From the sequence record OZ035773.1: a stretch of 64,000 nucleotides of DNA; one strand, given 5' to 3'. Source of the stretch: Justusliebigvirus VEcB. Made by a program: the position numbers and the translations under genes. Below the pieces are notes generated by a model that made no database searches, had not been told where the DNA came from, and was given only the letters and a program-made list of their open reading frames with translations. Every line of letters starts with the position of its first letter. Within the stretch, counting starts at the first letter, position 1. Positions 21,349 through 44,347 of the stretch are shown here, in pieces.

Positions 21349-21387
21349 ATAAAGCCCCTGATTGGGGCTTTGGTTAAGTTTTACGGA

Positions 21388-27149: not shown

Positions 27150-27812
27150 TTATTTAATATTCAATTTTGCACAAAGACGTTGTACCGCTTTGGCATCGAA
27201 CAAACTCCCACGAATAGTTCTCTTTCCTGATTCATTCAGATGCTTTGCAATCGTCATATATGGCGTTTTACAAGCTCTGTATGCAACTAAAGAATCTTTT
27301 AAAGAAAGCGCAAACTCTCTTGAGCGTTTTGCTTCTTCCGTTTTCGTATAGTCTGTTCTTTTGTATTTAGGGTTTGCTGCACCAAGAAGCGTTCCCTTCG
27401 CTTTTGCTACCTTAAGGCTCTTCTTAACACGATCAGATATTGCACGAGCCTCTTCTTCTGCCAGAACTGCTAAAATATTTATTATCATATTTTCAGCGGA
27501 GGGCATAGTTGCTATTCGTACATTAATCATCTCTAACAAGGTTGCAACAGAAGCTGTGTTACGTCCAAGACGGTCAACCTTAGCAACAACAAGTGTAGCA
27601 CCTGTTTCTTTGCAAAGATTAACAGCTTTTACAAGCTCTCTACGTTGCTTCCAATCGCCTTTACCCGAATAAAACTCTGCAAAGCTACCTATAATAGTAT
27701 AATTTTCTTGTGAATCCAGGAAGCGTTGAATATCTGCTTCCTGTGATTCTATACCATACTGGTTGCCTTGTTGTTTCTTCTTAGAAAGTCGATGATATAG
27801 TACAAACTTCAT
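27150..27812 (-). CDS. serine recombinase (resolvase/invertase family)
   Basis: YHRLSKKKQQ catalytic-Ser region and VAKVDRLGRN motif; AGGAGG RBS. Confidence 0.8.
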   Translation of the reverse strand: MKFVLYHRLSKKKQQGNQYGIESQEADIQRFLDSQENYTIIGSFAEFYSGKGDWKQRRELVKAVNLCKETGATLVVAKVDRLGRNTASVATLLEMINVRIATMPSAENMIINILAVLAEEEARAISDRVKKSLKVAKAKGTLLGAANPKYKRTDYTKTEEAKRSREFALSLKDSLVAYRACKTPYMTIAKHLNESGKRTIRGSLFDAKAVQRLCAKLNIK

Positions 27813-28085: not shown

Positions 28086-28324
28086 TCGTTGTTACGAGCA
28101 CTTTCAAGAACCTTGACAACTTCTGCATACTCTACAGCTAAACCAGCGCACACTTCAGCTTGTTTTGCAATTGCTTGTTTAAAGAACATAGCGATTGCAA
28201 CACTCTGTGTTGTGTGAATGTTATCTGCTTTAGTTGATACATGAAGATCAAAATCTTCTTCATCAAAGGTGAGTTCCATAGTAACAATAAATTTCTCGGT
28301 CATAAAAATGCTCCTCTTAAACAA
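28073..28324 (-). CDS. hypothetical protein (83 aa)
   Basis: six-frame ORF. Confidence 0.4.
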   Translation of the reverse strand: MFKRSIFMTEKFIVTMELTFDEEDFDLHVSTKADNIHTTQSVAIAMFFKQAIAKQAEVCAGLAVEYAEVVKVLESARNNDWEE

Positions 28325-28826
28325 AATAGAAAGGTTGAGTTAAACCCAGCCTGTTTTTTGGGTCGTAGACGTACCAAGCATATGCTGTCTTATCAGTACC
28401 ACCTGCAACAAAAGATGGTCGTTCAGAAAGAACAATCAAATTTGTTGGTGGATTCTGTTTATGGAACTCCCTTCGTTTAATAGACTCTAGGAACCCAAGA
28501 CGCAACAAGTATATGCAAACGTCTGCTTCTTTTAAGCTCTTTTGCAAGAACTCAAGTGCAAGTTTGAATGGGGGATTTGTGATTATAATATCCGGCTTAG
28601 TATGCCATTCGTGGTTAAAATAATCTTTCCCTTCTTCTAACTCACAATATTCTGATCCTTCTGGAAAATGTTGATAAATTGCAGCAGCAGCGCCTTTACA
28701 CGGTTCTGCAAAAATAAAACCTTCTTCTTTAAGGTTATTAAAATCTATTACACTAAATAATGCATTTATACATTTTTGTGGAGTAGGATAGTAATCAGTT
28801 GGTGGACGATCATACTTATTTGCCAC
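28317..28826 (-). CDS. DNA N6-adenine methyltransferase (small)
   Basis: TNPPF catalytic motif with upstream DYYPTP. Confidence 0.65.
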   Translation of the reverse strand: MANKYDRPPTDYYPTPQKCINALFSVIDFNNLKEEGFIFAEPCKGAAAAIYQHFPEGSEYCELEEGKDYFNHEWHTKPDIIITNPPFKLALEFLQKSLKEADVCIYLLRLGFLESIKRREFHKQNPPTNLIVLSERPSFVAGGTDKTAYAWYVYDPKNRLGLTQPFYFV

Positions 28827-29244
28827 TACTTAAAATCTCCTCTTTTGTGATTTCAGGGTCTTCTTCAAAAACCATAATATCTCTTAAGAACGTTAATTCT
28901 TCCATAGATACTGGTATTGTATCTTCTTCTGTTTTTCGTTTACATAAATCGTCAAGAAAGTTTTTAAAGTTTTCTGACAAATCGTAAAATTTCAACAGTT
29001 GATAATCACAGGAGGAGATCCTATCTAGTTCTAACATTCTTTCTAAGATATTTTCTGTGTTGCCGTACAACACACGAACTTCTCCGAAAGGGTTGACTGA
29101 ATATTGTGAAGTTCTGAACCATCCCTTTTTAGATACAGTGTAACGCTGTTCTGCTAAACTTTCAATAAAATTTTTAGCTCTTTTACAGTTTTGTTCTAAA
29201 GAGTAGTAGGCTTTTTCTACAAAGATTACAGGTACTGGTAACAT
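28816..29244 (-). CDS. hypothetical protein (142 aa)
   Basis: six-frame ORF. Confidence 0.5.
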   Translation of the reverse strand: MLPVPVIFVEKAYYSLEQNCKRAKNFIESLAEQRYTVSKKGWFRTSQYSVNPFGEVRVLYGNTENILERMLELDRISSCDYQLLKFYDLSENFKNFLDDLCKRKTEEDTIPVSMEELTFLRDIMVFEEDPEITKEEILSSGK

Positions 29245-29258
29245 ATCTCCTCCTAATA

Positions 29259-29277
29259 ACCCCCGTGAGGGGGTTTA
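29259..29277 (-). terminator. rho-independent terminator after HslV-like gene
   Basis: ccccc-gtga-ggggg plus T run. Confidence 0.5.
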
Positions 29278-29284
29278 TGTTAGA

Positions 29285-29938
29285 TTAATTATCAGAGGAT
29301 ACTTTATCAAGTTTTTCAGAGACTGTCAATACTTTTTCTTGTGATTCTTTCATTTCTGCTAAAATACTTTCAGCTTCATCACTATCAGGATCACCAGTCA
29401 ACAGCATACTAATTAGTTGCTCCTTGCTGAAGTTCAGAATATCTTCCGCTGTTAGCTCCAGTTGTTCTTCAATCTCTTCGACAAAAGTTTCACCGCCTGA
29501 AAAAGCATCTCGTAGTTTTGCAACTTCCATCGCTTCTTCTGGGGTTGCCCCAGCATCTAAAGCTGCTAAAGCAAAATCTGCCCCACTACCAACAGCATAG
29601 TAATCTTCAGTTAAAGGATATGCTCGCGTTGGATTATTACCCTCGTGCATATAAATTTTACCGTCTGGGTGAACAACCAATGCCACAAACTCTTCATCTT
29701 CTTTATCAGGATCTGACTGGATCACCAAACCTGGGATTGTCTCTTGTGCTGCCTGGCACTGTAAGTTTTGTTCGAACCAAGAAAAGAAAGTCAGGATAGA
29801 AGACAGACGTCCTGCACCACCAACAAGGTAATCCCCAATTTTACGCACTTTCTTAAAATTTAAAGTGTCTACTCGATTACCTACTGTTACTTTACCGTCA
29901 GATAGAATTTTGTTATGTGTTGCAATAATTGTTGTCAT
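29285..29938 (-). CDS. HslV-like Ntn-hydrolase peptidase with acidic C-terminal extension
   Basis: N-terminal MTTII (Thr nucleophile after Met), GGAGRLSSILTFF, YAVGSGADFALAALDAG align with HslV. Confidence 0.7.
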   Translation of the reverse strand: MTTIIATHNKILSDGKVTVGNRVDTLNFKKVRKIGDYLVGGAGRLSSILTFFSWFEQNLQCQAAQETIPGLVIQSDPDKEDEEFVALVVHPDGKIYMHEGNNPTRAYPLTEDYYAVGSGADFALAALDAGATPEEAMEVAKLRDAFSGGETFVEEIEEQLELTAEDILNFSKEQLISMLLTGDPDSDEAESILAEMKESQEKVLTVSEKLDKVSSDN

Positions 29939-30429
29939 TGTACTTCCTCCTGTAGTGTTTTAAGGACTGCTTTACCACCGCTTACATACTTACGGAGGTA
30001 ATCAATAGCTCTTAGTGTTTCTTTATCCACAAGAATTTTATTAGTTCTTGTCAATGGATGATTCAGTAAGTCACTGCAATTTCTTACTAACATAGATTTC
30101 TTGTGAAAGATACTGCTAAGAAAAAGAAGTTTAGAATCTTCTTCATCAATCAGGAGTAATTCTGAATTAGACCCAGCTACATTTATTATACACTCAAACA
30201 AGCCTTCTTGACTATCAGATAATTCCTGGTAATATTTAGTTAGCCAATCCTCTCCTTTTAACCAACTAAAAAACATCTGAACTTTTTGCAAAGTTGTCAT
30301 GTTCTCTAAACGAAGAGATATTTCTTTTTCAATCTTGTCAATATAAATCTGTCTAAACTCATTCGGCTTAACTAAGCCAGCTTGATAGCATTCATCAATA
30401 CCATTGCGATCAATCTCAATTAGCGTCAT
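29935..30429 (-). CDS. hypothetical protein (164 aa), translationally coupled to HslV-like gene
   Basis: 4 nt overlap with downstream gene. Confidence 0.5.
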   Translation of the reverse strand: MTLIEIDRNGIDECYQAGLVKPNEFRQIYIDKIEKEISLRLENMTTLQKVQMFFSWLKGEDWLTKYYQELSDSQEGLFECIINVAGSNSELLLIDEEDSKLLFLSSIFHKKSMLVRNCSDLLNHPLTRTNKILVDKETLRAIDYLRKYVSGGKAVLKTLQEEVQ

Positions 30430-30465
30430 TTAACCTCCATAATAGGCATCCTTGCCTTGTAATTA

Positions 30466-31218
30466 TTAATATACTTCCGTGATGAACTGAGACAAACGGG
30501 AACGTTGGTTATCAGCAGTTGTCATTTCAACATAACCAATAAAATCTACAATAGCTTCCCTTTCTCCTTCTTCGTTAATAGGAACAACACGATCTAACAA
30601 ATCACCTAACCCGTTAGCTCTTCGTTTAATTGCATATGTTTGATTAACATCGCCCATAATGACAATACGTGTATTAAGACCTGCTCGCTCAAGGAGAAGT
30701 TTTACTGTGTTTGGTGACATAAGTTGAACTTCATCAATAAGAATAATGCTGTTATCCCACGTAGCACCTAGTGCATAGTTCGGAATATTAAGTTCAATTT
30801 TGCCACTTGCAATATCGTTTTCCAATTTATTTGCAGTCATAAACTGTTGGAAAATTCTTTTAGTTGACTCGTAGTGTGCTGCTAGTTTATCAGTCTTATC
30901 TCCAGATAAGAAACCGATTTGGTCATCACCTACTTCTGTCGGGTTTTTAAGGAAAATCAACTTTCTGAAGTCACCAGCTTTAAGCATTTGCAATGCTTTC
31001 CATAGTGCTGTTGTCGTTTTTCCTGTTCCTGCTGGGGCATTAACAATGGTTAAATCATTCCAAACCATGCTTCTTACAATAGCTTCTTGATTCCCAACAG
31101 GGGTAAATTCATCAAGACGGTAATCATCATTTCCTACTGCTTTAGCCGCATAACGACTGGCACGTTTGTCATCATTGGCTGCTGATTGACGACGAGCCTT
31201 TGCGGTTTTATTTCCCAT
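30466..31218 (-). CDS. phoH: PhoH-like ATPase
   Basis: Walker A NAPAGTGKTT, Walker B ILIDEVQ, IMGDVNQ. Confidence 0.85.
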   Translation of the reverse strand: MGNKTAKARRQSAANDDKRASRYAAKAVGNDDYRLDEFTPVGNQEAIVRSMVWNDLTIVNAPAGTGKTTTALWKALQMLKAGDFRKLIFLKNPTEVGDDQIGFLSGDKTDKLAAHYESTKRIFQQFMTANKLENDIASGKIELNIPNYALGATWDNSIILIDEVQLMSPNTVKLLLERAGLNTRIVIMGDVNQTYAIKRRANGLGDLLDRVVPINEEGEREAIVDFIGYVEMTTADNQRSRLSQFITEVY

Positions 31219-31233
31219 GTTTGCACTCCTTAT

Positions 31234-31255
31234 AAAAGGGGCTTTCGCCCCTTTG
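31234..31255 (-). terminator. rho-independent terminator
   Basis: ggggc-tttc-gcccc plus T run. Confidence 0.55.
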
Positions 31256-31256
31256 T

Positions 31257-31757
31257 TTAGTTATAAGCGTCTAATGTTCCAGTTTTAAGCACCTGAATTA
31301 CACGCTCTGCGCGATTAGGCGTTTGGCGATACCATTTACTTTTACGTAAATTTATAGAGGCTTGAGTATAATATGAATTACTCACTAAAGTCAAGCTATT
31401 TTTGAAAGATTCTGCACCTTTCAATCCCATTTGAAATACCATATTAATAATAGCCATTTTACGATTAGGACTTACTTTATCGTAAATAGGAGATAATATG
31501 GTGCTTGAATGGATTTGTTGTATCGCTTTCTTTACGTCACTCTCAAAGATTCTTCTAGCTTCCGCTTCAGTAATAACTCCATTGGTTTTTCTACCTACTA
31601 AGTTATCAAGAATGCGTATAGCTTCTGCTTTATCTTTGAGTTTTGTCAGAAGGTGTCCAATACCAACTGTCCAATACCCTTCGGTATCAGGATATACAGT
31701 TAGCTTTAGTCCTTCATCAAAACGTAACATATCAAACACATCAACTACTTTAGCCAT
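31257..31757 (-). CDS. T4-type lysozyme (endolysin, glycoside hydrolase)
   Basis: FDMLRFDEGLKLTVYPDTEGYWTVGIGHL matches T4 lysozyme N-terminus. Confidence 0.85.
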   Translation of the reverse strand: MAKVVDVFDMLRFDEGLKLTVYPDTEGYWTVGIGHLLTKLKDKAEAIRILDNLVGRKTNGVITEAEARRIFESDVKKAIQQIHSSTILSPIYDKVSPNRKMAIINMVFQMGLKGAESFKNSLTLVSNSYYTQASINLRKSKWYRQTPNRAERVIQVLKTGTLDAYN

Positions 31758-31769
31758 GTTTTCCTTATA

Positions 31770-31913
31770 TTAGTCGCCCTCCCCATGATCTAGCTCTTGA
31801 AACAGTAGGTGTTCAGGAGACATTTCACGTTTAGGCTTCGTCTTTTTAGTTTGGGACTTAAGCTCTGTTGCCAAAGCACGAGAAAAGATCTTACGTTTCT
31901 GTTTACCTTTCAT
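31770..31913 (-). CDS. small basic hypothetical protein (47 aa)
   Basis: manual translation; not in track. Confidence 0.25.
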   Translation of the reverse strand: MKGKQKRKIFSRALATELKSQTKKTKPKREMSPEHLLFQELDHGEGD

Positions 31914-31917
31914 ATTG

Positions 31918-32184
31918 TTACTCCGCAATCTGAGCCATGAATTCACGTAGTTCAGAAAAACCTCCTACGTGGGTTAGCTGTTCACCATCTTCCACAAAAA
32001 TCTGAGGAAATGTGCGTGGTAGAACACCTGTTTTCTCTAAAACCAGATTCTGAATCTGATCTAAAGAATAGTCTTCATCTAAGGTAAGGTATTTAAAATC
32101 CTGTTCACGCTGTTCTAGTAGAATCTTAGCGTTAGTGCAGAAAGGACAATTTGGTTTACCGTAGATAATAAAATTCATTTTCAC
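31918..32184 (-). CDS. glutaredoxin (NrdC-like redoxin)
   Basis: CPFC active-site motif; 88 aa. Confidence 0.75.
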   Translation of the reverse strand: MKMNFIIYGKPNCPFCTNAKILLEQREQDFKYLTLDEDYSLDQIQNLVLEKTGVLPRTFPQIFVEDGEQLTHVGGFSELREFMAQIAE

Positions 32185-33011
32185 TCCTTGTTTAAAAGTA
32201 TAGTTAAAGTTCTTACAATACCGCTATCAACACTTCGCGGATTTAAAGTAGGATCTGTTTTTAAATAAGATGTTGCTGGTCTGACTGCTTTGGAATTATA
32301 GGTTGAAGCAGACACAGGATTAACTGTAACAGATAAATCTATAACAAGAAATATCTTACGTGCAAAATCATACCAAGAAATATAATCTGCACCTGCATAG
32401 TGTACAATTTTACTATTTACACCATCTTTTACAAGTTTAAAAATTGTTTCTGCAAGATCAGGTGCATAAGTAGGACATGACAAATGATCACATACTACAT
32501 TAAATTCTTTTTGACCACCGTTGTAGCGTTCCAACATAGTTTTCAAAAAGTTATGTCCAAATTCACTATAAACAGAAGCTGTTCTGATAATAAGTGCTGT
32601 AGGACAAACTGTTTGTACTAAAGTTTCACCTAATTGTTTACTGTAACCGTAGGTGTTCAAGGGGTTTGTTTTACTATCTTCTGTGCCAGCAACATGCCCA
32701 TCAAAAACATAGTCTGTTGAAATATGTACAAACTGTATCAGTAAATCATTACATGCTTTGGCAATGTTTGTTGCACCGTATGCATTAACATTTATACAGG
32801 TGTTAACATCTTCTTCAGCTTTATCTACTGCCGTGTAAGCCGCACAATTCACAACAACATCAGGCACATGCTGTACAAGACTATTCATAACATCTTTAAA
32901 GTTGGTAATGTCTACATCACTTGCTTCAATCAAAATAACATCTTCGGGCGCAACTTTTGCCAAAGACTGTCCTAATTGACCTTTTGAACCAAAGATTAAA
33001 AATTTTGTCAA
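32181..33011 (-). CDS. rmlD: dTDP-4-dehydrorhamnose reductase
   Basis: N-terminal GxxGQLG Rossmann motif; YTAVD; operon position. Confidence 0.8.
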   Translation of the reverse strand: MTKFLIFGSKGQLGQSLAKVAPEDVILIEASDVDITNFKDVMNSLVQHVPDVVVNCAAYTAVDKAEEDVNTCINVNAYGATNIAKACNDLLIQFVHISTDYVFDGHVAGTEDSKTNPLNTYGYSKQLGETLVQTVCPTALIIRTASVYSEFGHNFLKTMLERYNGGQKEFNVVCDHLSCPTYAPDLAETIFKLVKDGVNSKIVHYAGADYISWYDFARKIFLVIDLSVTVNPVSASTYNSKAVRPATSYLKTDPTLNPRSVDSGIVRTLTILLNKE

Positions 33012-40900: not shown

Positions 40901-40998
40901 AAATTCTCCTTCTCTCTTTTTAAGGAGAGCTACGCTCTCCTAACGTTAGCCTATACTACACGAATCTCAATTAAAAGTCAACTATAATTTTAAGTTGA

Positions 40999-44307: not shown

Positions 44308-44322
44308 AAATCCTCCAAAAAT

Positions 44323-44347
44323 AAAGGGGCTTTCGCCCCTTTTTATT
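44323..44347 (-). terminator. rho-independent terminator
   Basis: ggggc-tttc-gcccc plus TTTTT. Confidence 0.55.

Follow-up and report, generated by a model that had tools for sequence, protein, structure and literature searches.

With somewhat better than even confidence, we interpret the 217-aa protein encoded at positions 29285-29938 on the minus strand as a putatively active, accessory and non-structural threonine protease, which belongs to a phage branch of the proteasome/HslV family and for which the PhoH-like ATPase encoded nearby is most likely not the unfoldase. The window, i.e., the whole stretch of 64,000 nucleotides analyzed, represents a phi92-like E. coli myovirus and matches phage PaulScherrer at 99.6%. 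The three-gene unit proposed in an earlier note on this DNA was recovered at the coordinates given there as three co-directional ORFs, all located on the minus strand: phoH (30466-31218; 250 aa, a PhoH-family P-loop ATPase corresponding to phi92 gp060), a gene for an all-alpha orphan protein of 164 aa (29935-30429; phi92 gp059) and the gene for the HslV/proteasome-beta-like Ntn threonine peptidase (phi92 gp058). The first two genes are separated by 36 nt, while the spacing between the second and the third is -4 nt. Here, the stop codon of the 164-aa gene and the start codon of the HslV-like gene overlap as ATGA (29935-29938) with GGAGG upstream (junction GGAGGAAGTACAATGACAACA), which bears out the coupling that had been suggested for the two genes.

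The proteasome/HslV fold and all catalytic residues of the 217-aa protein were confirmed. The HslV homology claimed before was affirmed by profile matches, PDB chains and the predicted fold: the ORF marginally passed the threshold of PF00227 (24.4 bits, cut-off 22.4; E=2.6e-5), matched phrog_1040 'peptidase HslV family' with E=1.5e-62 and hit HslV chains in the PDB with E-values as low as 2.4e-7. Over 127 residues, its identity with E. coli HslV amounts to 29%, and its closest solved relatives by sequence and by structure are HslV (ClpQ) proteins with 22-28% identity. HslV, the peptidase of bacterial HslUV, is built as a dodecamer from two hexameric rings. The AF2 model, which was calculated for a single chain, reached a pLDDT of 82.9 and displays the alpha-beta-beta-alpha Ntn sandwich. 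Using this model, Foldseek retrieved 928 matches at E<=0.001, headed by HslV, 20S beta and BPH (E about 1e-9 to 1e-10). Equivalents of the active-site set of the superfamily (N-terminal Thr, Asp17, Lys33, Gly47, Ser129-type) are all present, as are those of the HslV residues Thr1, Asp17, Lys33, Gly45 and Ser124-Gly. The earlier note had pointed to an N-terminal Thr and a GSG region and had made its reading dependent on conservation of the catalytic Thr, Lys and Asp. The protein indeed starts with MTT and contains G117-S118-G119, and Thr2, Asp14, Lys30 and Gly117/Gly119 are invariant across the homologues. Gly43 and Ser118 are invariant in alignment A1 and nearly invariant in alignment A3, and the motif RDxxSGG (residues 143-149) is conserved. 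Every family member begins with MTT or MTC. Methionine aminopeptidase removes the initiator Met before Thr. Since Thr directly follows the initiator Met (start and Thr2 codons at 29933-29938, minus strand), the protease needs no propeptide, and Thr2 is predicted from the sequence to become the N-terminal nucleophile after Met removal.

The 217-aa protein is, however, not an orthologous HslV. With the NCBIfam HslV equivalogs NF003964 and TIGR03692 it scored only 34.5 and 32.2 bits, compared to cut-offs of 137 and 157.75. Helix H2 falls into a gap when the protein is aligned with E. coli HslV, and in the AF2 model a single helix (residues 45-67) is followed by a coil (68-84). Instead of the short pore loop of HslV, the phage protein has a 17-residue acidic loop (IPGLVIQSDPDKEDEEF, residues 68-84; 29687-29737, minus strand) containing six D/E and one K/R. 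Its catalytic core comprises residues 1-155, to which an acidic helical C-terminal extension (residues 156-217) is attached. This tail (62 aa; 17 D/E versus 5 K/R, pI 4.05) extends past the end of E. coli HslV in the alignment, in agreement with the acidic extension of about 60 aa that had been described as absent from bacterial HslV.

This gene had been known before: GenBank labels identical proteins "putative 20S proteasome" or "peptidase HslV family" (PHROG 1040), the gene occurs in 166 phage records with homologues on phage-sized contigs, and a computational study of 2021 compiled proteasome homologues from phages. The PPH and RPC clusters of that study are group I proteasome homologues from Caudovirales phages and host prophage regions, whose hallmark is the lack of helix H2 (Fuchs, Alva, Lupas et al. 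2021, PMC8665760); WP_042125023.1 (PPH) and WP_140207863 (RPC) are the reference sequences. The phage protein likewise is group I, phage-encoded and free of a propeptide, possesses a compact core without H2 and, like RPC, carries a C-terminal extension. PPH has been described as about 140 residues long and RPC was listed only for proteobacteria, not for phages (PMC8665760), whereas our protein consists of a core of about 155 residues plus the tail; it is likened to PPH/RPC by description. As Fuchs et al. (2021) use these terms, it would be a PPH/RPC-like, non-structural and accessory protease. The PhoH context and the exchange for ClpP reported below are not described in that study (PMC8665760). 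Our literature search on members of the HslV-like family disclosed genome annotations and one computational survey only, and no paper was found linking phi92 to the proteasome or treating PhoH-ClpP or PhoH-HslV as a module.

BPH, the beta-proteobacterial proteasome homologue (PDB 5ovs/5ovt), gave TM-scores of 0.46-0.54 with the phage protein, compared to 0.54-0.70 for HslV. BPH comes from bacteria rather than phages and assembles into heptameric double rings; it retains helices H1 and H2, of which the latter is missing in the phage protein. It has been reported to be a proteasome-family Thr protease, apparently free of an unfoldase, with a long acidic loop lining the pore (PMC8665760). The acidic loop that replaces H2 and the short pore loop in the phage protein would, as in the unfoldase-independent BPH, argue against canonical docking of HslU.

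No HslU AAA+ partner had been noticed in the window, and tblastn across it found no homologues of HslU, ClpX or Lon (for HslU none at E<=10). HslU-like genes are essentially absent from the phi92-type phage lineage: only four Escherichia-phage records had an HslU-like match, compared to 107 with an HslV-like gene, and phage HslU-like genes reside chiefly in jumbo Erwinia and Salmonella phages. The host E. coli has HslU of its own, though, and the phage protease rings might use or titrate host HslU or another AAA+ protein, by which host proteolysis would be redirected or blocked. That the closest solved relatives are HslV proteins fits this idea, and ClpP-type counterparts could likewise borrow host ClpX or ClpA. 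Nevertheless, we regard such hijacking as unlikely. Helix H2, which judging from HslUV structures belongs to the HslU-facing apical surface, has given way to the acidic loop, and the HslV equivalog scores lie far under their cut-offs. Moreover, Lys28 of HslV contacts the C-terminus of HslU in HslUV structures, while the corresponding position in the HslV-like protein is a non-conserved Thr/Leu.

The assignment of the gene at 30466-31218 to the P-loop PhoH-like ATPases, also made earlier, was substantiated by matches to PF02562 (E=1.4e-35), phrog_170 (E=2.6e-62) and PDB 3b85 (E=1.6e-14) and by the Walker A (AGTGKT) and Walker B (IILIDE) motifs; its N-terminal ~45 residues are basic. The score with the NCBIfam PhoH equivalog (73.8 bits) was under the cut-off of 380, and that of the PhoH2 equivalog was not reached either. 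Secondary Pfam and NCBIfam matches were of the SF1-helicase type (AAA_30, AAA_19, UvrD, RecD, Cas3), not Clp/Hsl AAA+, and tblastn with HslU, ClpX and Lon gave no match to phoH. Judged by these comparisons, the window PhoH is not a member of the AAA+ unfoldase class. In the literature, PhoH is classed as an SF1-related RNA helicase/ATPase, and models of the PhoH domain show a hexameric ring around a central pore. In PhoH2, a hexameric PhoH ring is coupled to a degradative PIN RNase ring, an arrangement analogous in architecture to a ring translocase that delivers into a degradative chamber. The window PhoH shares the PF02562 core and both Walker motifs with PhoH2/YbeZ but has no PIN or KH domain, and the known substrates of this family are RNA, not protein. 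Most likely, PhoH is a nucleic-acid-dependent ATPase with a role of its own rather than the unfoldase of the protease, to which it is genomically linked and with which it probably shares the infection phase.

The survey of co-occurrence recommended in the earlier note yielded a real signal, as each of the 28 long-form HslV-like loci had phoH upstream in the same orientation. With lineages sampled by hand for PhoH and ClpP-like proteins, PhoH was found 5' of an HslV-type or ClpP-type protease in about 11 lineages altogether. The order within the early/nucleotide-metabolism region is RNR, glutaredoxin, lysozyme, phoH, the protease slot, and a methyltransferase or ligase. In ICP1, Vibrio phage F99 and the rV5-like and PVP-SE1-like phages, the slot 3' of phoH is filled by a ClpP-type serine protease; the same syntenic position was determined in Murica, KE22, F99 and ChuuTotoro. 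The ICP1 slot protein contains a ClpP domain (PF00574, E=1.4e-11) and matches phrog_1827 with E=8.6e-75. These phage ClpP-like 'ATP-dependent proteases' (phrog_1827/5410: ICP1, Murica gp110, F99_0185) also lack a neighboring cognate ATPase except for PhoH. They differ from the HslV-like proteins by the Ser-His ClpP/crotonase fold in place of the Ntn Thr fold, and their loci lack the 164-aa gene. Sharing of the slot suggests that the job to be done is that of a chambered protease whose catalytic core is interchangeable.

This exchange also bears on the question whether the 217-aa protein is a chambered protease at all. Its Ntn site might act as a ligase or transpeptidase like connectase, as a specific amidohydrolase or in single-turnover processing. 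The proteasome-like superfamily does include the ligase connectase and many homologues predicted to lack stacked rings, and loss of H2 together with the long tail might preclude assembly of double rings. We consider this very unlikely, because the replacement in situ by members of the ClpP family, in which Ser and His are invariant, suggests that selection acts on generic proteolysis, and because the full set of proteasome-type residues including RDxxSGG is conserved. Even closer to refutation is a function as prohead protease in capsid maturation. The ClpP fold is common among head-maturation proteases, and the ICP1 protein additionally showed weaker matches to head-protease PHROGs, but the best PHROG matches were non-structural 'ATP-dependent protease' families. 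The gene is part of the early/nucleotide-metabolism block at a large distance from the structural genes, is deleted in the isolate VEcB, and Barba phages carry a separate peptidase among their portal and capsid genes. Ntn-type head proteases are not known.

The linkage of phoH to both protease types raises the alternative, a generalized form of the proteolytic module hypothesized in the earlier note, that PhoH is a nucleotide-driven partner or regulator of phage non-structural chambered proteases of the HslV or ClpP type, which together would constitute a non-canonical ATP-dependent protease. A hexameric ring ATPase would dock on the protease and gate or feed it, possibly by coupling remodeling of RNA or RNPs to proteolysis; the shared C-terminal tail may provide the coupling, an SF1-like ring may replace AAA+, and the substrates may be proteins bound to RNA or DNA. 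Apart from the upstream position in all long-form loci, this alternative draws on the persistence of the linkage after the non-orthologous swap to a ClpP-type core (ICP1, F99, Vequintavirinae) and on close contacts of the two genes: in Otagovirus phiPsa347 phoH and clpP share 8 overlapping nt, in Barbavirus they adjoin, in Shewanella phage 1/4 they are separated by a 71-nt gap, and in the siphovirus P26059A they are consecutive ORFs. Furthermore, the modeled hexameric PhoH ring with its pore matches the hexamer symmetry of HslV-type proteases, a cognate AAA+ partner is missing from all of these phages, and the three genes were lost together in VEcB.

Several data speak against this alternative, which we hold to be doubtful. 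PhoH resembles SF1 helicases and behaves biochemically as an RNA helicase/ATPase, a group without precedent for unfolding of proteins. It occurs in 2,483 phage records, while HslV-like genes were counted in 166 and ClpP-like genes, head proteases included, in 1,184. The steadiest neighbors of PhoH are RNR and lysozyme genes, regardless of whether a protease is present, and in the samples of cyanophages, Kuttervirus and T5-like phages PhoH lies beside RNR genes with no protease nearby. Conversely, a protease without PhoH was detected in five lineages (Pakpunavirus, N4-like VBP47, T5-like PSTCR5, CP220 and a lineage with an HslV-like protein of 182 aa). Between phoH and the protease gene, zero to six unrelated genes intervene, HNH endonuclease genes among them. 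PhoH subtype and protease type assort independently (18% identity between the PhoH proteins of F99 and 1.193.O), and the PhoH of Otagovirus contains a non-canonical P-loop (GTSKT). In addition, most positive lineages have a larger syntenic block in common and thus might not count as independent. The complementary charges of the acidic tail and the basic N-terminus of PhoH were dismissed as specific evidence, since the same basic N-terminus exists on PhoH proteins without a protease neighbor.

In T5-like PSTCR5, the gene 5' of clpP was considered as an unannotated phoH but turned out to encode a dNMP kinase. The recurrent adjacency of phoH, including the 8-nt overlap in Otagovirus, could mean that PhoH plays a greater role for the protease than our preferred explanation allows. 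The gene family was known before, its surroundings are informative, and a function of PhoH as its unfoldase is hypothetical. If PhoH does drive or gate the proteases, a new architecture of ATP-dependent proteases would emerge. Its recurrent position just 5' of them gives phage PhoH, a widespread 'auxiliary' or marker gene, a concrete candidate partner.

The tail is shared across the two folds. Its motif 1 (LELTAEDILNFSKEQLISMLLTG, residues 160-182; 29393-29461, minus strand), in which E173 and L175 are nearly invariant, is common to the HslV-type relatives and the tail of the ICP1 ClpP-type protease. The ClpP-type proteases of both ICP1 and F99 possess a C-terminal tail homologous to that of the HslV-type proteins: hhalign of the ICP1 tail against the motif-1 profile gave a probability of 81% (E=1.2e-5), a further hhalign comparison 87.6%, and BLASTP of ICP1 ClpP residues 176-326 against residues 152-276 of the qdvp001 HslV-like protein E=5e-7. 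The tails of the F99 ClpP-type protein and of 1.193.O are 62% identical over the last 34 residues (E=4e-10). The phi92-type tail has only motif 1 in common with ClpP-type tails, and its match to Vequintavirinae tails was weak (hhalign 17%). The domain at the end of the tails, absent from phi92, is possibly HeH/Rho_N-like by sequence; a Rho_N match was obtained for one sequence only and below the cut-off (E=4e-4), and a profile search of PDB sequences gave no match for this domain. According to our preferred reading, motif 1 and the possible end domain would recruit a partner or a substrate or determine the location of the protease. As HslU and ClpX docking mechanisms differ, a common tail on HslV-type and ClpP-type cores indicates a partner common to both, which argues against the use of host unfoldases. 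The replacement in situ by ClpP-type proteases that bear this tail indicates that the task is a generic one for a chambered protease, with the tail providing direction.

The 164-aa gene remains co-linear down to 32-40% identity. A BFVD search with the protein yielded a single remote match (TM about 0.6) of no named identity, and its HMM found no match in the ClpP-type loci or the distant HslV-type loci examined. Positional counterparts in Vibrio and Aeromonas phages were rejected as homologues (nothing by BLASTP, 0.1% by hhalign). For the most divergent homologues (P0164-P0166), scans of IMG/VR did not disclose a contig. The translationally coupled orphan might be an accessory specific to the lineage, for instance an assembly factor, a regulator or an adaptor.

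Phage VEcB carries a 1.1-kb in-frame deletion at an 8-bp microhomology, which removes the C-terminal part of PhoH, the 164-aa gene and residues 1-62 of the HslV-like protein. The module of the three genes would accordingly be dispensable for propagation, if VEcB is viable as its status of a deposited isolate implies. PADLOC did not assign a defense or anti-defense match to the HslV-like protease, the 164-aa protein or the 142-aa protein encoded downstream. Should PhoH not drive the protease, the enzyme with its tail would still be a candidate effector in host takeover or counter-defense. With a lineage represented in the BASEL collection (PaulScherrer), the natural deletion mutant VEcB and small soluble proteins, the system is tractable.

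The earlier note had also described the locus as an operon bounded by terminators at 31234 and 29259. Hairpins do exist at both sites, but they do not qualify as rho-independent terminators, and the proposed boundaries could not be established. The hairpin between the lysozyme gene and phoH (AAAGGGGC-GAAA-GCCCCTTT; 31235-31254, minus strand) has an 8-bp stem and a GAAA loop (-14.0 kcal/mol) and is directly followed by the phoH RBS, while the one between the HslV-like gene and the 142-aa gene (AACCCCC-TCAC-GGGGGTT; 29258-29275, minus strand) has a 7-bp stem (-13.7 kcal/mol). Neither is followed by a U-tract on the minus strand, where the tails read TTATAAGG and ATTAGGAGG. A terminator scan reported the 31235 hairpin on the plus strand only and did not list the 29259 hairpin at all, and its total equaled the expectation from shuffled sequences (4 versus 4.1). 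Another small hairpin of 5 bp (30444-30457, minus strand; -6.1 kcal/mol) separates phoH from the 164-aa gene within the operon that had been proposed. The gap of 38 nt 5' of phoH is occupied by the hairpin and the RBS only, so that transcription must read through the hairpin; no space is left for a promoter 5' of phoH. The nearest upstream intergenic site of the TTGACT type is located near 40981. Promoter prediction was uninformative for delimiting the transcription unit, since consensus matches were not enriched relative to shuffled sequences (32 versus 23.0, sd 5.1; 50 versus 54.7, sd 7.0). Probably, the three genes are transcribed within a longer leftward unit, and the hairpins may be read-through, attenuating or RNA-stabilizing elements rather than operon boundaries. 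Similar GC-rich hairpins recur along the leftward gene block at 21349, 23523, 37594, 42685, 44308 and 47894, and the one near 44308 (stem-loop 44323-44342) has the same GGGGCGAAAGCCCC core as the hairpin in front of phoH.

The three open reading frames described in the earlier note were all recovered on the minus strand of the window at the coordinates claimed there. The product of phoH (30466-31218) matches PF02562 (E=1.4e-35) and contains the Walker A and Walker B motifs AGTGKT and IILIDE. The 164-aa gene (29935-30429) is coupled to the HslV-like gene (29285-29938) through the stop/start overlap ATGA, with GGAGG upstream. As reported before, the window encodes no HslU; tblastn did not reveal any HslU, ClpX or Lon homologue within it. 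Genes for a T4-type lysozyme (31257-31757) and a glutaredoxin (31918-32184) lie directly upstream of phoH, next to an RmlD gene (32181-33011; PF04321, E=1.5e-73). The rest of the dTDP-rhamnose pathway (RmlC, RmlA and RmlB equivalents) is annotated further upstream in the phi92 record. Downstream of the module a serine recombinase/resolvase (27150-27812; PF00239, E=1.7e-21) and a DNA methyltransferase (28317-28826; phrog_799) are encoded. The same kind of methyltransferase also follows a ClpP-type protease in the phages Murica, KE22, ChuuTotoro and Barba33A.

A nucleotide search with the region 28800-31800 yielded 55 matching records of Justusliebigvirus (Stephanstirmvirinae), all with at least 95% identity. 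Escherichia phage PaulScherrer was the closest (99.6%), followed by the remaining listed records including phi92 (98.5-99.4%). The phi92 counterparts of phoH, the 164-aa ORF and the HslV-like ORF are gp060, gp059 and gp058, respectively. Since gp058 was labelled "putative 20S proteaseome" in the original phi92 record and its protein is termed "peptidase HslV family" by RefSeq and PHROG-based annotation, the three-gene observation is correct, yet not new.

The assignment of the 217-aa protein to the HslV/proteasome type and the conservation of its catalytic residues were confirmed by profile searches and alignments. The protein exceeded the Pfam Proteasome threshold only slightly (24.4 bits, threshold 22.4) and matched phrog_1040 with E=1.5e-62 and PDB HslV chains with E=2.4e-7 at best. 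In alignments with 23 homologues (19-98% identity), no substitution occurs at Met1-Thr2, Asp14, Lys30, Gly117 or Gly119 and few if any at Gly43 and Ser118, and the motif RDxxSGG is conserved; these residues align to HslV Thr1, Asp17, Lys33, Gly45 and Ser124. Methionine aminopeptidase removes an initiator Met preceding Thr. As Thr directly follows Met1, this enzyme should expose the predicted nucleophile without autoprocessing. An AlphaFold2 model (pLDDT 82.9) disclosed an Ntn sandwich, whose top Foldseek matches were HslV, archaeal and eukaryotic 20S beta subunits and BPH. The acidic C-terminal extension was likewise verified: residues 156-217 reach beyond the end of E. coli HslV, contain 17 D/E versus 5 K/R (pI 4.05) and are predicted to form three helices.

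The protein is not an orthologous HslV, as its scores with the two NCBIfam HslV equivalog models (34.5 and 32.2 bits) stay far below the respective cut-offs (137 and 157.75). At the site of the helix H2 and the short pore loop of HslV, the model of the window protein has an acidic coil of 17 residues (IPGLVIQSDPDKEDEEF), preceded by a single long helix (45-67). Among proteasome homologues, Fuchs et al. (PMC8665760) name the phage-associated PPH and the related RPC, which carries a C-terminal extension, as the sole groups without H2; both were defined in that study. The window protein agrees with this published description, on which the comparison was based, and it is a member of a catalogued phage branch of the proteasome family known from sequence. 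HslU-like genes were found in four Escherichia-phage records, compared with 107 harboring an HslV-like gene. Phage HslU-like genes mainly occur in jumbo Erwinia and Salmonella phages; the ATPases of the Erwinia phages AH06, Ea35-70, Caitlin and others and of Salmonella jumbo phages are 33-44% identical to E. coli HslU. Aeromonas phage 4L372D contains two tandem phrog_1040 genes (comparison locus L004, 3432-3983 and 4001-4885), a short 183-aa form starting with MTC, in which GCG replaces GSG, and a long 294-aa form. By analogy with alpha and beta subunits, the two products may form a hetero-oligomer.

To survey co-occurrence, as the earlier note had proposed, we inspected 28 loci encoding long-form HslV-like proteins. 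They belong to Stephanstirmvirinae, Klebsiella phages KP13-16, the Vibrio phages qdvp001/VnaP and 1.193.O, Aeromonas Plateaulakevirus and Shewanella phage 1/4. In every one of them phoH was located upstream on the same strand, at distances from 71-84 nt up to about 2.9 kb, and between the two genes zero to six unrelated genes were found, an HNH endonuclease gene among them. Synteny extends over the whole block around them (RNR, glutaredoxin, lysozyme, phoH, protease, methyltransferase/ligase/DprA); therefore, shared ancestry alone could explain the linkage.

Outside this lineage, the closest PhoH is encoded by Vibrio phage ICP1 (46% identity), which has the same gene block. In the position downstream of phoH, however, ICP1 encodes a protein of 326 aa that contains a true ClpP domain (L037, 13590-14570; PF00574, E=1.4e-11; phrog_1827, E=8.6e-75). 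The C-terminal 150 residues of this protein align to the entire C-terminal extension of the qdvp001 HslV-like protein (BLASTP E=5e-7), and the last 35 residues gave an hhalign probability of 87.6%. The ClpP-type protein of Vibrio phage F99 (L040, 4974-5900) and the HslV-type protein of 1.193.O are 62% identical over the last 34 residues (E=4e-10). The first conserved tail motif, at residues 160-182 of the window protein (LELTAEDILNFSKEQLISMLLTG) matched the ICP1 ClpP tail with an hhalign probability of 81% (E=1.2e-5). ClpP-type proteases occupy the same position in rV5-like Murica (L038, 4845-5894), PVP-SE1-like KE22 (L039, 4902-5822) and Serratia phage ChuuTotoro (L049, 6108-6971), where the next gene is the methyltransferase lying downstream in phi92; their tails match the window-protein motif weakly (hhalign 17%).

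As judged from these alignments, two unrelated chambered-protease cores have been exchanged in situ in ICP1 and F99, while the common tail was retained. In our view, no other observation speaks as strongly for a protease function of the HslV-like protein and for the tail being its specificity or partner determinant. Missing from the phi92-type protein is the terminal domain of the related tails, for which profile searches gave a single sub-threshold match to Rho_N (HeH-like) and nothing else. The exchange with its shared tail and the recurrent, though not universal, site downstream of phoH constitute the most useful new information from the analysis.

The 164-aa protein was modelled confidently as an all-alpha fold (pLDDT 93.2, pTM 0.84) and belongs to a small family with only 13 clusters at 50% identity among 1.84 billion representatives. 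Down to 32-40% identity (L007, L026 and L027), its gene directly precedes the HslV-like gene; it was not found in more distant HslV-type loci or in any ClpP-type locus examined. The protein is thus probably a lineage-specific accessory of the protease. A cryptic proteasome subunit was rejected by hhalign (probability 3%).

The genomic association of phoH with protease genes is real, and the mechanistic idea of the earlier note, a proteolytic module of PhoH and the protease, has become more concrete. The linkage persists through the core swap, phoH and clpP overlap by 8 nt in Pseudomonas phage phiPsa347 (Otagovirus; L041, 3693-5058), phoH adjoins the protease gene in Barbavirus and Shewanella phage 1/4, and in siphovirus P26059A ORF116 and ORF117 encode ClpP and PhoH (PMC5964084). 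Since another peptidase is encoded among the head genes of the Barba phages (PMC6715854), their PhoH-adjacent ClpP is probably not the head protease. Moreover, the PhoH domain has been modelled as a hexameric ring (PMC7390352), whose symmetry would be compatible with HslV-type rings. Yet PhoH is related to SF1 helicases and acts as an RNA helicase (PMC7824862, PMC7390352), not as an AAA+ unfoldase; it often occurs in the absence of a protease, and such proteases are also found in phages without PhoH. Phage records comprise 2,483 PhoH, 166 HslV-like and 1,184 ClpP-like entries, the last figure including head proteases. In a T4-like cyanophage, a Kuttervirus and a T5-like phage, the neighbours of phoH are RNR or lysozyme genes, and a protease gene is missing from the vicinity. 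ClpP-type genes without phoH are present in Pakpunavirus, N4-like VBP47, T5-like PSTCR5 (a dNMP kinase gene precedes it there) and CP220. The HslV-like proteins of another subgroup, which is separate and abundant, measure ~182 aa (P0117-P0155), contain an insertion after H1 and lack the tail; in metagenomic phage contigs of ~80-100 kb (L029-L033) their genes come directly after one for a CHAP/PG-binding endolysin, and phoH is absent from the adjoining 8 kb. PhoH subtype and protease type also assort independently, the PhoH proteins of F99 and 1.193.O being 18% identical, and the basic PhoH N-terminus is general, occurring in PhoH proteins without a protease link too. A common machine, which conflicts with the known biology of PhoH, is therefore in our opinion improbable, and the association may largely stem from a shared ancestral early-gene block. 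The phiPsa347 PhoH has the non-canonical P-loop GTSKT instead of GTGKT. In Campylobacter phage CP220 (L050, 3887-7033) the gene after the ClpP-like one is not phoH but encodes a P-loop protein of 728 aa whose C-terminal domain is of the helicase type. Here, too, a protease gene neighbours an NTPase gene, but the NTPase is a different one.

The earlier note had described the module as an operon bounded by terminators. Both flanking hairpins exist (31235-31254, -14.0 kcal/mol; 29258-29275, -13.7 kcal/mol), but neither has a U-tract on the transcribed strand, and the boundaries could not be upheld. A terminator scan reported one of them solely on the opposite strand and missed the other, its total equalling the shuffle expectation. 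A third hairpin (30444-30457) lies inside the proposed operon, and similar GC-rich hairpins occupy many intergenic gaps of the leftward block of ~57 genes. The core AAAGGGGC-GAAA-GCCCCTTT occurs twice in these gaps (31235-31254 and 44323-44342), and other GC-rich tetraloop hairpins were found at 21349, 23523, 37594, 42685 and 47894. T-runs or TTGAC-type promoters follow only some of the hairpins. Promoter-like matches were not enriched over shuffles. Since the 38-nt gap preceding phoH holds just a hairpin and the RBS, phoH would have to be transcribed by read-through. The module genes thus probably belong to a longer transcription unit, in which the hairpins may act as attenuators or RNA-stabilising elements.

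Phage VEcB (MT932211; L034, 2665-3468) carries a deletion of ~1.1 kb corresponding to ~29753-30873 of the window. At an 8-bp microhomology (GCAGCACA), codon 115 of phoH is thereby fused in frame with codon 63 of the HslV-like gene, and the C-terminal part of PhoH, the whole 164-aa gene and the protease residues Thr, Asp and Lys are lost. The resulting fusion of PhoH residues 1-115 and HslV-like residues 63-217 is labelled as a single 267-aa hypothetical protein in GenBank and 'PhoH-like protein domain-containing' in UniRef. As the phage carrying this deletion was deposited as an isolate, propagation evidently does not require the module; the deletion also argues strongly against a role in head maturation. 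Some GenBank records that match this E. coli phage lineage bear a Campylobacter jejuni label; for example, MG065639 ('Campylobacter phage A150') is 98.5% identical to the 3-kb region of the window, and MG065656 ('Campylobacter phage C3') encodes an HslV-like protein 99.1% identical to that of the window. Host mislabelling or contamination is the likely cause.
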